Shown: positions 58,236-62,188 of the stretch, piece after piece
Numbering within the stretch: the stretch's first letter is position 1
How the letters are laid out: each line of letters begins with the position of its first letter
Source of the DNA: Candidatus Omnitrophota bacterium
GTDB taxonomy: Bacteria > Omnitrophota > Gorgyraeia > Gygaellales > Profunditerraquicolaceae
DNA length: 64,000 nt
Assembly: GCA_043798795.1 (NCBI GenBank)
Contig: JAZDOJ010000007.1
Coordinates: 28,259 to 92,258, forward strand
Direction of reading: 5' to 3'
Notes under the pieces: model-generated
Databases searched by the model: none
The model's input: only the letters and a program-made list of their open reading frames with translations
Told to the model about the DNA's origin: nothing
Position numbers and translations under genes: made by a program

Positions 58236-58264
58236 TTGACACGCATGTGAACCTGTGATAAGAT
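58236..58264 (+). promoter_or_regulatory. Sigma70-like promoter TTGACA - 17 bp - TAAGAT upstream of the small zinc-ribbon ORF
   Basis: Consensus -35 with 17-bp spacer read directly; AGGAGG SD at 58298-58304. Confidence 0.5.
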
Positions 58265-58307
58265 TGTAAAAGTATTTAAGAACTTAAGGTTAAAAAGAGG
58301 AGGAGCA

Positions 58308-58457
58308 ATGGCAGAAAAAGGTTATTGCGTCAAATGCAAAGGTAAAAAGGAAATGAAGGATGAGCAAAAAGTGACCATGAAAAATAAGCGTTTAGCCATG
58401 AAAGGGAAATGCCCTGATTGCGGAACGGGCATGTACAAGATTCTAGGAAACAAATAG
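58308..58457 (+). CDS. Small (49 aa) Lys-rich zinc-ribbon protein (C-x2-C ... C-x2-C), absent from the ORF track
   Basis: MAEKGYCVKCKGKKEMKDEQKVTMKNKRLAMKGKCPDCGTGMYKILGNK; perfect AAAGAGGAGGAG SD 5 nt upstream of the ATG. Confidence 0.65.
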   Translation: MAEKGYCVKCKGKKEMKDEQKVTMKNKRLAMKGKCPDCGTGMYKILGNK

Positions 58458-58482
58458 TCGTTTTTAAGGAGGTCGACTACTC

Positions 58483-58845
58483 ATAGAGCCAAAGGATTTA
58501 GCATTTCGCATCACAGCGGCAGCCAGAGCCAAAAAAGCGCAGAAGGTTCTGGTTTTGGATATGCGTCGAGCTTCCAGCTTCTGTGATTACTTTGTTATCT
58601 TAAGTGGCACCTCCCTCAGGCACGTGAACGCCCTGGCGCAGGCCATAGAGGCTGTTTTAAATAAAGACAGGATAAAATCTCTCTCAAAGGTGTCACCTAA
58701 CGACGAATCCGGCTGGGTGGTCTTAGATTATGTGAGCGTCGTCGTTCATATCTTTTATAAACCGATGAGAGAGTTTTATTCTTTAGAGCGCCTCTGGTCG
58801 GACGCCAAAAGGGTACGGGTTCCTCGAAGCATTCCTACCGCTTAA
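58483..58845 (+). CDS. rsfS: Ribosomal silencing factor RsfS (Iojap); start codon uncertain and non-canonical
   Basis: DYFVILSGTSLRHVNALAQAI and VVLDYVSVVVHIF motifs; conserved N-terminal region (DLAFRITAAARAKKAQKVLVLDM) lies in-frame upstream of the track's TTG, and the frame is open from 58468 with no ATG. Confidence 0.7.
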   Translation: MEPKDLAFRITAAARAKKAQKVLVLDMRRASSFCDYFVILSGTSLRHVNALAQAIEAVLNKDRIKSLSKVSPNDESGWVVLDYVSVVVHIFYKPMREFYSLERLWSDAKRVRVPRSIPTA

Positions 58846-58853
58846 AAACCATC

Positions 58854-60491
58854 ATGAAGCAGAGCATTCAGGATGTTTTGATAAAAATAACGGGTGAGGC
58901 CTTGAAGGAGCTTGAGGTCGCTCAAGAGGCCCCTGTGGATATTTATCTTGATTTTCCAACAGACGTGCGCTTCGGAGATTTATCGACCAGCATTGCCCTT
59001 CGTTTGAGTAAGCAGGTTCAAAAACCTGCGGCCGAAATTGCCCGGACTTTGGTCGATTCCATAAGGAAACAGTTGGCCATGAGCCCTGCCCGAAATGTGG
59101 TCCAGCAGGTCAAGGTTGAGGGAGCCGGTTTCATCAATTTTTATTTAGAAGACGGATATTTTTATGAGCAGTTAAAGGATTTGTTAACGAGGGGGGATGA
59201 GGCTCTAAAAGCGGACCTCGGGAGAGGGAAAACTGTTCTGATTGAGTTTGTCAGCGCCAATCCCACAGGTCCTTTATCGGTGGCTCACGCCCGGCAGGCA
59301 GCTGTCGGAGATTCTTTAGCCAATATTTTGGATTTCTTGAACTTCAAGGTCAAAAGGGAATATTACCTGAATGACGAAGGGAATCAGATCGAAATCCTGG
59401 GTCGTTCCGTTGAGCTGAGGCTTAAGGAACTGGAGGGGGAGAAAATTGATTTTCCTCAAGACCATTATCAGGGAGACTACATTTACGATATAGCCAGAAA
59501 ATTCAAAACAGAAGATCCAGAGTCCAAGAATCTGGGGGAATTTGCGGCGGATTATTTATCGGATATTATAAAAAAAGAGCTGGGTGATTTTGGAGTGCGG
59601 TTTGATTTCTGGTATTCCCAGAAGAAACTCCGGGAGAGCGGCTCCATCGGTCAGGCGCTCGAGGGATTAAAGCAAAAAGGATTTCTCTATGAGCAGGAGG
59701 GGGCCCTGTGGTTTAAGTCTACTGAATTCGGGGATGATAAGGACAGGGTGGTGGTCAAGAGCGACGGTGCGTATACGTACTTAGCTCCCGATATGGCTTA
59801 TCATCAGGACAAATACGCGCGTGGCTTTCACTGGCTGATCAATCTCTGGGGCCCTGACCATCACGGTTACATCAGAAGGCTCAAAGCCGCTGTCCAGGCC
59901 ATGGGCCATGAATCGATGAGCCTGACGATCTTGATCGTGCAATTAGCGTCTCTGTTTAAGGATGGCCAGTCCTTGGAGATGTCCACACGCAAAGGTCAAT
60001 ACATTTCCCTCAGAGAAGTTCTGGATGAAGTGGGCGTGGATGCCGCCCGGTTCTTTTTTCTGATGCGCCGGATCTCCAGCCACCTGGATTTTGATTTGGG
60101 GTTGGCCAAGAAACAAACGCCTGAGAACCCCGTTTATTATATTCAGTACGCCCATGCCCGCATCTGCAGCATCCTTAAAGAAAGCTCTCTCAGATTAAAT
60201 AAAGAGGCGTCCTTGTCCCTCCTTAAGGAAAAAGAAGAAATAAACCTGATAAAGAAATTACTACAGTTCCCGTACATATTGAATATTTGCTTGATGACCA
60301 CAGACCCTTATATGTTGACAGTATACCTTCAGGAGCTTTCCGAGACCTTCCATAAGTTTTATGACCTGCACCGCGTTCTGGGCCAGGAAAAGGCGCTGAC
60401 AGAAGCGAGGCTTTCTCTCATCGAGGCCACCCGGCTCGTTATTGCTCAAGGGTTAGAACTCCTGGGAGTTTCCAGGCCCCAGAGCATGTAA
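58854..60491 (+). CDS. argS: Arginyl-tRNA synthetase
   Basis: Class I HIGH-type motif (SANPTGPLSVAHAR), anticodon-binding DALR C-terminus; 545 aa. Confidence 0.95.
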   Translation: MKQSIQDVLIKITGEALKELEVAQEAPVDIYLDFPTDVRFGDLSTSIALRLSKQVQKPAAEIARTLVDSIRKQLAMSPARNVVQQVKVEGAGFINFYLEDGYFYEQLKDLLTRGDEALKADLGRGKTVLIEFVSANPTGPLSVAHARQAAVGDSLANILDFLNFKVKREYYLNDEGNQIEILGRSVELRLKELEGEKIDFPQDHYQGDYIYDIARKFKTEDPESKNLGEFAADYLSDIIKKELGDFGVRFDFWYSQKKLRESGSIGQALEGLKQKGFLYEQEGALWFKSTEFGDDKDRVVVKSDGAYTYLAPDMAYHQDKYARGFHWLINLWGPDHHGYIRRLKAAVQAMGHESMSLTILIVQLASLFKDGQSLEMSTRKGQYISLREVLDEVGVDAARFFFLMRRISSHLDFDLGLAKKQTPENPVYYIQYAHARICSILKESSLRLNKEASLSLLKEKEEINLIKKLLQFPYILNICLMTTDPYMLTVYLQELSETFHKFYDLHRVLGQEKALTEARLSLIEATRLVIAQGLELLGVSRPQSM

Positions 60492-60499
60492 GCTGATCC

Positions 60500-62188
60500 A
60501 TGCCTAGCCATAAAATCTTAAAAATCGCAAAACCTTCTAACAGCCTGTGTGATCAGCTCAACAAAGAATTAGGGTTGCCGGAAATACTGGCCCAGATTCT
60601 CATTAACAGGGGGATAAGCACAGCCCAGGAGGCTGAAAGGTTCCTGAATGTCAACCCCGAACATCTTTTGGACCCTTTTCTCTTCAAGGATATGCGAAAG
60701 GCCGTCAGCCGTATCCAGGGGGCAGGCCGGGACAAAGAGGAGGTCATGGTCTTTGGAGATTATGATGCGGATGGGATAACCGCCTTGGTCCTTTTAAAGG
60801 ACACACTTAAGAAAATAGGGGTGGAAGCGCTCCATTACCTGCCGCATCGGATTAAGGAGGGGTATGGCCTGAACAAAAATATCGTCAGGCATATCCTGAA
60901 AACAAAAGTCAAGCTTTTGATCACCGTTGACTGCGGGATAAGCAACCACGAGGAAATCGAGGAGTTGAAACGTCACCACATAGATGTGATTATCACCGAC
61001 CATCATGAGTCGGCAACCGAGAGGCTTCCCCATGCTTTCGGTATCCTGAATCCCAAAACCAAAACAAGCGGTTACCCGTTCCGGGACCTGGCAGGGGTGG
61101 GCGTATCTTATAAGCTTTGTCAGGCCTTAAGCGATTCTCCTTTGACAGAGGATCTGGATTTAGTCTCCCTAGGGACTATCGCGGACTGCGTGCCGTTGAC
61201 AGGAGAAAACCGTATCATTGCCAAAGAAGGCCTCAAGCAGCTTGCGCAGACAGGAAGGGAGGGCTTGCGGGCTCTTATAGAGAACGCCGGAATCAGCGGT
61301 CGTAAGTTCACCTCAACTTTCGTCAGCTTTATCCTTGGTCCCCGTATCAATGCCAGCGGCCGGATGGATACGCCTGAGACTTCCCTCAATCTCTTGATGA
61401 GCCGGACGCCGGAAGAGGCCCAAAGGTACGCGAAGGTCATTGAAGGCCACAATCGGCAGCGGCAAAAAATAGAGAACAGGATCCTGGATGAGGCCCAGGA
61501 CCTGATTGATAAAGAGGTTAATTTTAAGGAACATAAAATCATCGTTATTGCCAAGGAGGATTGGCATCAGGGCGTGTTGGGTATCGTGGCCTCAAGACTG
61601 GCGGATCGATTTTACAGGCCGGCGATCGTGATCTCTTTGGATGAGAAATTATGCAAGGGTTCAGGCCGCTCCATTAAGAATTTTCATCTTTTGCAGGCGC
61701 TAACGGAGTGTAAAGAATTTCTGGATAGTTTTGGCGGGCATAGCCACGCGGCGGGCCTGGTGATTACCAAGGACAGCATAGAAGATTTTAAGCGCAGCAT
61801 CAACGAACTGGCTCATCAGCGCTTATCTATCGAGGACCTGTTGCCAAGTCTCGATATCGATATGGAGCTGGCCCTTTCGGATTTGAATGAAGCAACCGTC
61901 ACCGCGTTTGACAGATTGGAACCTTTTGGGGCAGGAAATCCCGAACCTTTATTTTTTTCAAGAAATTTAAGAAGGAAATCAGAACCTCAGGTTTTAAGCC
62001 GGGAGACTCTGAAATTCTGGGTCACGGATGGCCTAGCGACCTATCAGGCCATTGGTTTTGGTATGGGTCCTTTGAAGGATAACCTTTTAGAATCAGAAAG
62101 TTTCGATCTGGTTTATACAGCGCGCATAGACAACTGGGCGGGGGAGACCTCTGTTCTTTTGGAAATCAAAGATATATTTTTTAAGTGA
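60500..62188 (+). CDS. recJ: Single-stranded-DNA-specific exonuclease RecJ
   Basis: DHH motifs (VFGDYDADGITA, ITDHH), DHHA1 region GGHSHAAG, C-terminal OB domain. Confidence 0.95.
   Translation: MPSHKILKIAKPSNSLCDQLNKELGLPEILAQILINRGISTAQEAERFLNVNPEHLLDPFLFKDMRKAVSRIQGAGRDKEEVMVFGDYDADGITALVLLKDTLKKIGVEALHYLPHRIKEGYGLNKNIVRHILKTKVKLLITVDCGISNHEEIEELKRHHIDVIITDHHESATERLPHAFGILNPKTKTSGYPFRDLAGVGVSYKLCQALSDSPLTEDLDLVSLGTIADCVPLTGENRIIAKEGLKQLAQTGREGLRALIENAGISGRKFTSTFVSFILGPRINASGRMDTPETSLNLLMSRTPEEAQRYAKVIEGHNRQRQKIENRILDEAQDLIDKEVNFKEHKIIVIAKEDWHQGVLGIVASRLADRFYRPAIVISLDEKLCKGSGRSIKNFHLLQALTECKEFLDSFGGHSHAAGLVITKDSIEDFKRSINELAHQRLSIEDLLPSLDIDMELALSDLNEATVTAFDRLEPFGAGNPEPLFFSRNLRRKSEPQVLSRETLKFWVTDGLATYQAIGFGMGPLKDNLLESESFDLVYTARIDNWAGETSVLLEIKDIFFK

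Follow-up and report, generated by a model that had tools for sequence, protein, structure and literature searches.

The short open reading frame at positions 58308–58457 (+ strand) of the window, which is the whole 64,000-nucleotide stretch of Candidatus Omnitrophota DNA analysed here, is a genuine gene, strongly constrained by purifying selection, and its product is a single-domain Cys4 zinc ribbon of the Pfam family DUF5679. In the Omnitrophota this gene carries a conserved near-consensus sigma-70 promoter and a strong, exposed Shine-Dalgarno site, and it is the first gene of a conserved DUF5679–rsfS–argS(–recJ) array in which the downstream genes have no comparable promoter. As regards function, the reading favoured here, to which about an even chance is assigned, is that the protein is an abundant small nucleic-acid binder heading the operon, with DNA as its likelier ligand. 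The features of the locus are as follows.

58236–58241, + strand: −35 hexamer TTGACA, found by consensus scan
58256–58264, + strand: extended −10 (TG-A-TAAGAT), 17-nt spacer from the −35; the −10 TAAGAT itself lies at 58259–58264, and the TG at 58256–58257 ends the spacer
58271–58307, + strand: short, unstructured 5′ UTR, drawn from an inferred transcription start near 58271 and holding the Shine-Dalgarno site
58294–58305, + strand: Shine-Dalgarno site AAAGAGGAGGAG (GAGGAGGAG)
58308–58457, + strand: DUF5679 coding sequence (ORF with ATG start, 49 aa, PF18930 match, dN/dS about 0.08)
58465–58472, + strand: Shine-Dalgarno site of rsfS, TAAGGAGG
58483–58845, + strand: rsfS, ribosome silencing factor (Pfam RsfS PF02410, E 1.5e-28; TIGR00090, E 1.7e-28)
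58854–60491, + strand: argS, third gene of the triad (ORF; tblastn synteny; Arg_tRNA_synt Pfam domains on the orthologue at locus L096)
60500–62188, + strand: recJ-like gene (ORF; synteny in loci L001–L043; named from a reading of the sequence)

The frame encodes the product MAEKGYCVKCKGKKEMKDEQKVTMKNKRLAMKGKCPDCGTGMYKILGNK, in which the cysteines form two pairs (C7-x2-C10 and C35-x2-C38) and 13 lysines and one arginine stand against five acidic residues, with a pI of 9.66 and a net charge of about +8.5. Among the 116 ATG-started ORFs of 40–70 aa in the 64-kb window it alone has two CxxC motifs. The match to DUF5679 (PF18930) scores 56.1 bits, where the gathering cutoff is 27 (E 3.9e-15), and aligns residues 6–45 with positions 1–40 of the 40-position profile. 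Searches of NCBIfam and PHROGs gave nothing significant, and tblastn against phage genomes gave one weak match only. The AlphaFold2 model shows five beta strands in a zinc ribbon (mean pLDDT 79), with weak fold matches to Cren7 and to the NrdR zinc ribbon. An antisense ORF of 43 aa (58322–58453, − strand) wholly overlaps the gene and was rejected as a shadow of the lysine-rich frame; the Pfam match and the selection analysis at 58308–58457 concern the + strand frame only.

Word-index searches returned 1132 and 1731 homologues of the 49-aa protein, the best of them 80–98% identical and several deposited from Candidatus Omnitrophota MAGs under the name ‘DUF5679 domain-containing protein’, while an exact-sequence look-up found no record of the window protein itself. 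A profile search of 1.84 billion cluster representatives recovered 4199 homologue clusters (50% identity) at E ≤ 1e-3. Across the Candidatus Omnitrophota the orthologues are 75–94% identical, with 20 positions, the four cysteines among them, invariant in 32 sequences. Among 17 diverse members, which include domains fused to topoisomerase, C7, C10, C35, C38, K9, G33 and T40 never vary, and conservation is 90% or more at Y6, V8 and A30; position 43 of DUF5679 proteins is usually Tyr or Phe. In 66 codon-aligned orthologues taken from genome loci the mean pN was 0.16 against a mean pS of 0.83, the synonymous sites being saturated, and the 367 unsaturated pairs among them gave a median dN/dS of 0.08. 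The initial annotation had proposed a genuine small coding gene for a basic Cys4 zinc ribbon, and both proposals are borne out by the full-length Pfam match, the low dN/dS, the basic pI and the four cysteines; the ORF, promoter, Shine-Dalgarno site and CxxC pairs that it had read from the sequence were all found where it had placed them. It had named a lack of homologues and of conserved cysteine pairs as what would speak against it, and thousands of homologues were found, with the four cysteines invariant. Its description of the protein as unannotated did not survive, as this is no orphan but a full-length PF18930 member whose near-identical orthologues were already deposited under the DUF5679 name.

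DUF5679 is an uncharacterised zinc-ribbon domain family found in bacteria, archaea and some viruses. The window protein shares with its members the YCVKC...GxCPxCGT motifs and the single-domain format of 46–50 aa, and no feature distinguishes it from them; it is the Omnitrophota-specific context, namely the promoter and the operon with rsfS and argS, that adds to what is known of the family. Literature searches on DUF5679 and PF18930 found no functional description of the family, and sequence and profile searches of the PDB found no solved structure of a member. Copies from the Woesearchaeota/Nanoarchaeota and the Patescibacteria are approximately 75–85% identical to the Omnitrophota protein (DPANN archaeal loci L070, L071, L081–L083 and L095; Patescibacteria loci L068 and L084–L087), and one of the archaeal contigs also bears an archaeal TFB gene and an archaeal-type ProRS. 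Because this identity between bacteria and archaea occurs in a patchily distributed family, it implies horizontal transfer together with very tight constraint on almost every residue, and it suggests that a very tightly constrained protein of 47 aa has passed between the two domains.

The window promoter has 10 of 12 consensus matches in addition to its extended −10. When the 140 nt before the DUF5679 gene were scored in 57 Omnitrophota loci, the top sigma-70 match was 10.0/12 on average, and a promoter of at least 10/12 was present in this interval in 79% of them, compared with 2.2% of 1200 random 140-nt windows and with 0–5% upstream of each of trpA, the M16 peptidase gene, the CNNM gene, rsfS, argS and recJ. 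A TG preceded the −10 in 54% of the orthologous loci scoring at least 10/12. An AGGAGG-type core was found within 20 nt of the DUF5679 start in 52 of 54 loci, as against 0–2 loci for each neighbouring gene, and both signals are thus specific to the DUF5679 gene among its neighbours. The leader RNA folds with −1.1 kcal/mol, no better than shuffled sequences, and had no match in Rfam. No other + strand promoter of at least 10/12 was found between 58264 and 62188, the end of recJ. The claim of the initial annotation that the gene has its own promoter and a strong Shine-Dalgarno site is therefore upheld for the window, with its TTGACA-17-(TG)TAAGAT, and for the orthologous loci. Since promoter and Shine-Dalgarno site are conserved, the leader is unstructured and no further promoter of this quality follows, we infer that the gene is highly expressed, its protein being made in large amounts, and that its promoter also serves rsfS, argS and recJ.

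When one genome from each GTDB species was scanned, at least 550 relatives were recovered, and 80 loci were retained. In tblastn searches with the window proteins, DUF5679 was followed by rsfS, and usually then by argS, in 66 of the 80 loci, all of them Omnitrophota-like. The gene upstream of DUF5679 encodes a CNNM/CBS (CorC-type) protein, and the full order trpA–M16–CNNM–DUF5679–rsfS–argS–recJ is kept in the close clade (L001–L043), where the recJ-like gene is probably the last of the transcription unit. In more distant Omnitrophota (L044–L059 and L096) the flanks differ and RsfS is only 35–45% identical, and the triad is still kept, with DUF5679 at 71–85% identity; over the phylum DUF5679 is much more conserved than its neighbours (75–94% against 35–70%). 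The spacer between DUF5679 and rsfS is 0–35 nt in approximately 60% of loci, and in the window it is 25 nt long and has neither a hairpin nor a terminator. In the remaining 40% or so the spacer is 45–209 nt and holds stable GC-rich hairpins, some followed by T runs (for instance L003, L008, L010, L029, L037 and L057), and these hairpins may be partial terminators or attenuators lowering transcription of rsfS and argS relative to the DUF5679 gene.

Among the 14 loci that lack rsfS are members of the Dehalococcoidia, Planctomycetota, Patescibacteria, Nanoarchaeota and Lentisphaerae as well as a MAG labelled Bacteroidota, and eight further contexts retrieved by exact-protein look-up brought the contexts from other phyla to approximately 20. 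Outside the Omnitrophota the DUF5679 gene is monocistronic (Patescibacteria, DPANN archaea, Planctomycetota and Chloroflexota) and has unrelated neighbours, namely Ham1, an NDK-like gene, ProRS, EF-P, SufE/Zip, thioredoxin reductase and an S-layer protein; among these approximately 20 contexts neither a ribosomal-protein operon nor any pattern of translation genes was seen. The linkage of DUF5679 with rsfS is thus real but specific to one phylum. The position upstream of rsfS noted by the initial annotation is in this way confirmed by gene order over deep divergence within that phylum. It should also be noted that in L048 and L075 the DUF5679 gene is directly followed by a gene for a protein of approximately 410–420 aa, which in L048 carries nucleoside-diphosphate-kinase domains, and that the cluster representative P0369 resembles a DUF5679 domain with an NDK fragment, the NDK match being just below the Pfam cutoff; L064 was grouped with these three in the NDK-related observation.

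The rsfS frame opens after the TAA at 58465–58467, and its first ATG, GTG or TTG lies 24 codons into the conserved N-terminus. In the 43 same-clade loci (L001–L043) the codon aligned to the ATA at 58483 is ATA in 35, ATC in four and ATT in one, with a Shine-Dalgarno site approximately 5–12 nt upstream of it in nearly all, and an in-frame canonical start further upstream is absent in 38 and present in five. In a more distant Omnitrophota clade the start is GTG. Initiation of rsfS in the window therefore apparently takes place at a conserved non-canonical ATA codon, to judge from these alignments. A conserved AUA start would keep the output of RsfS low relative to that of the upstream cistron, and it could, as with infC, place RsfS synthesis under the influence of IF3 as well.

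Such an arrangement brings in the possibility that the small ORF is a leader cistron, whose translation controls rsfS and argS through translational coupling or attenuation and whose peptide has no role in trans. The short spacers, the hairpins of the longer ones and a weak AUA start, for which translation of the preceding cistron might be needed, are compatible with it. It is nevertheless considered extremely improbable, as the amino-acid sequence itself is under strong selection (dN/dS 0.08), the product folds into a domain that Pfam recognises, rsfS is provided with a Shine-Dalgarno site of its own, and in many phyla and in archaea the gene stands by itself with no rsfS. The idea of a leader peptide was rejected on account of these standalone orthologues.

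The initial annotation had suggested a ribosome-associated function from the position before rsfS. In this explanation DUF5679 would be a lineage-specific small zinc-ribbon ribosomal protein, likened to the Cys4 forms of bL31, bL32, bL33, bL36 and bS18, or a hibernation partner working with RsfS. In its favour are the retention of DUF5679–rsfS–argS in 66 of 80 loci, even in clades with a diverged RsfS and other flanks, the ribosomal-protein-like size, charge and zinc ribbon, the higher conservation of DUF5679 than of its neighbours and the strong expression signals of its gene. Zinc-ribbon ribosomal proteins (bL33, bL32, bL36, eL42, eS31 and aS34) do resemble DUF5679 in size, charge and zinc-ribbon architecture, with a faint similarity around the second knuckle, KGKCPxCGT. 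DUF5679 differs from them in having no significant sequence or fold match to them, in lying outside ribosomal operons and in its patchy spread across domains. No ribosomal family was found at E < 1 in Pfam or NCBIfam, no PDB chain matched the 49-aa protein significantly and no solved ribosome structure with a DUF5679 protein was seen. The best PDB match was to the archaeal ribosomal protein aS34 (E 0.032), over the last 19 residues only, and the PDB profile search gave bL33 (PF00471) at E 0.9–9, with eS31 and generic zinc fingers likewise below threshold. The aS34 protein is a 72-aa, two-zinc RING-like protein restricted to Thermoprotei and without bacterial homologues (PMC11698992); only one of its zinc knuckles aligns, and it was dropped as a candidate.

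Further points weigh against a ribosomal role. The synteny with rsfS is gone outside the Omnitrophota, the gene was never found in a ribosomal-protein operon in the sampled contexts, bacteria and archaea have near-identical copies despite their different ribosome surfaces, and the recurrent fusion partner of the domain is topoisomerase I and no protein of translation. Of the earlier suggestion there thus stands the synteny, within the Omnitrophota, whereas a ribosomal-family match did not appear and the fusion points to DNA; a ribosomal role is accordingly considered rather unlikely. Against the favoured nucleic-acid reading with DNA as ligand, the phylum-wide DUF5679–rsfS–argS order, retained down to 35% RsfS identity, argues for some link to translation.

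The domain architectures of the family carry most of the case for DNA. A search with P0266 as query gave, among its best 120 clusters, more than 100 in which PF18930 is joined to Toprim, with or without Topoisom_bac; those that bear a name are called DNA topoisomerase I and come from Anaerolineae/Chloroflexota. P0427 and P0433 have DUF5679 (4–43) first, then Toprim (64–173) and Topoisom_bac (from 188), and in P0266 two DUF5679 copies precede the topoisomerase I N-terminus. Chloroflexota topoisomerase I with one or two such N-terminal ribbons before Toprim was seen in P0266, P0387, P0427, P0433 and P0443 and in over 100 clusters besides; the literature searches brought up no account of such an architecture. 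DNA topoisomerase I is the only recurrent fusion partner of DUF5679, and the fusion is confined to one phylum. The window protein is 34–46% identical to the fused domains and has the family-wide invariant residues in common with them, the covalent link to the catalytic core being a property seen for the family and not for the window protein itself. In P0245 and P0247, RGRP (AT-hook-like) motifs lie between or next to the DUF5679 copies.

Tandem proteins with 2–7 copies were also observed, some with 4–7 ribbons; the multi-copy representatives are P0241, P0242, P0243, P0343, P0261 and P0279. An FGE-sulfatase domain is joined to two of the multi-copy proteins, and others combine two ribbons with a C-terminal transmembrane helix.

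The zinc ribbons of topoisomerase I itself (PF01396, Zn_ribbon_Top1; COG0551) are a further comparison. They share with DUF5679 four cysteines, a length of approximately 40 aa, basic and aromatic residues and an occurrence in tandem arrays, and one DUF5679 orthologue has been labelled with the COG0551 name by JGI. DUF5679 differs in that its fusion is N-terminal and not C-terminal, and in the longer spacing of its cysteine pairs (24 residues). No Pfam match to PF01396 was found in the 49-aa protein, and hhalign against a topoisomerase I with three PF01396 copies gave a probability of 33% (E 4.6e-4, 32 columns).

The topoisomerase I fusion points to DNA and away from the ribosome, and it is because of this fusion, the RGRP linkers and the tandem arrays that DNA is taken as the likelier ligand. 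The near-identical copies in archaea and bacteria would fit a ligand common to both domains, such as DNA. The fusion falls short of proving a DNA ligand, since the zinc ribbons of topoisomerase I have RNA polymerase and RNA among their binding partners as well; those at the C-terminus of the E. coli enzyme dock onto RNA polymerase. DUF5679 could in the same manner be a protein–protein adaptor serving the machinery of transcription or DNA topology, its ribbon docking onto RNA polymerase or topoisomerase I and binding no nucleic acid itself. The stable N-terminal fusion in the Chloroflexota fits an adaptor, as do the presence of topA two genes upstream of DUF5679 in L073 and the tight constraint on nearly every residue, as is typical where a protein contacts a partner that is itself highly conserved. 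The net charge of +8.5 and the Lys-rich hairpins are more typical of contact with nucleic acid, the archaeal copies remain 75–85% identical despite a different RNA polymerase and different topoisomerases, and the contexts sampled showed no recurring neighbourhood with rpo genes or topA, so that an adaptor role is regarded as distinctly unlikely.

In the favoured reading, that of a nucleic-acid binder, one zinc ion held by C7, C10, C35 and C38 would staple the five-stranded beta structure, and the protein would act as a small basic nucleic-acid-binding module. Y6, the Tyr or Phe at position 43 and a Lys/Arg surface (K9, K25 and R28) are the candidate contacts with the nucleic acid, and single- or double-stranded DNA would be the likelier ligand. 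The protein may then be a nucleoid- or topology-associated accessory factor. Its association with rsfS would, on this reading, reflect co-transcription from a shared strong promoter, with RsfS throttled by its AUA start, and not a shared ribosomal function.

The small chromatin proteins of Crenarchaeota of the Cren7 and Sul7d type were also compared with regard to their SH3-like five-stranded fold, Cren7 being one of the weak fold matches. A bolder proposal is that DUF5679 is a chromatin-like protein or nucleic-acid chaperone, very abundant and shared horizontally among the ultra-small-celled Omnitrophota, Patescibacteria and DPANN archaea, which in the Omnitrophota would be wired together with the AUA-initiated RsfS into a growth-state operon coupling the state of the nucleoid to ribosome silencing. 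This proposal is speculative and is thought unlikely.

At present the window gene counts as one unexceptional member of an already catalogued family whose function is uncharacterised. The family is very widespread (approximately 4,200 clusters at 50% identity) and unusually constrained, and the present analysis adds to it the lead given by the fusion with topoisomerase I, the conservation of promoter and operon and of the protein across domains, and the AUA start of rsfS. Binding of DNA or other nucleic acid, as the fusion suggests, is a testable lead, and the conserved strong promoter heading the rsfS–argS operon gives the gene a defined expression context. If the protein proves to be a major component of the nucleoid or associated with the ribosome, it would fill a gap in the cell biology of the uncultivated Omnitrophota, Patescibacteria and DPANN archaea.
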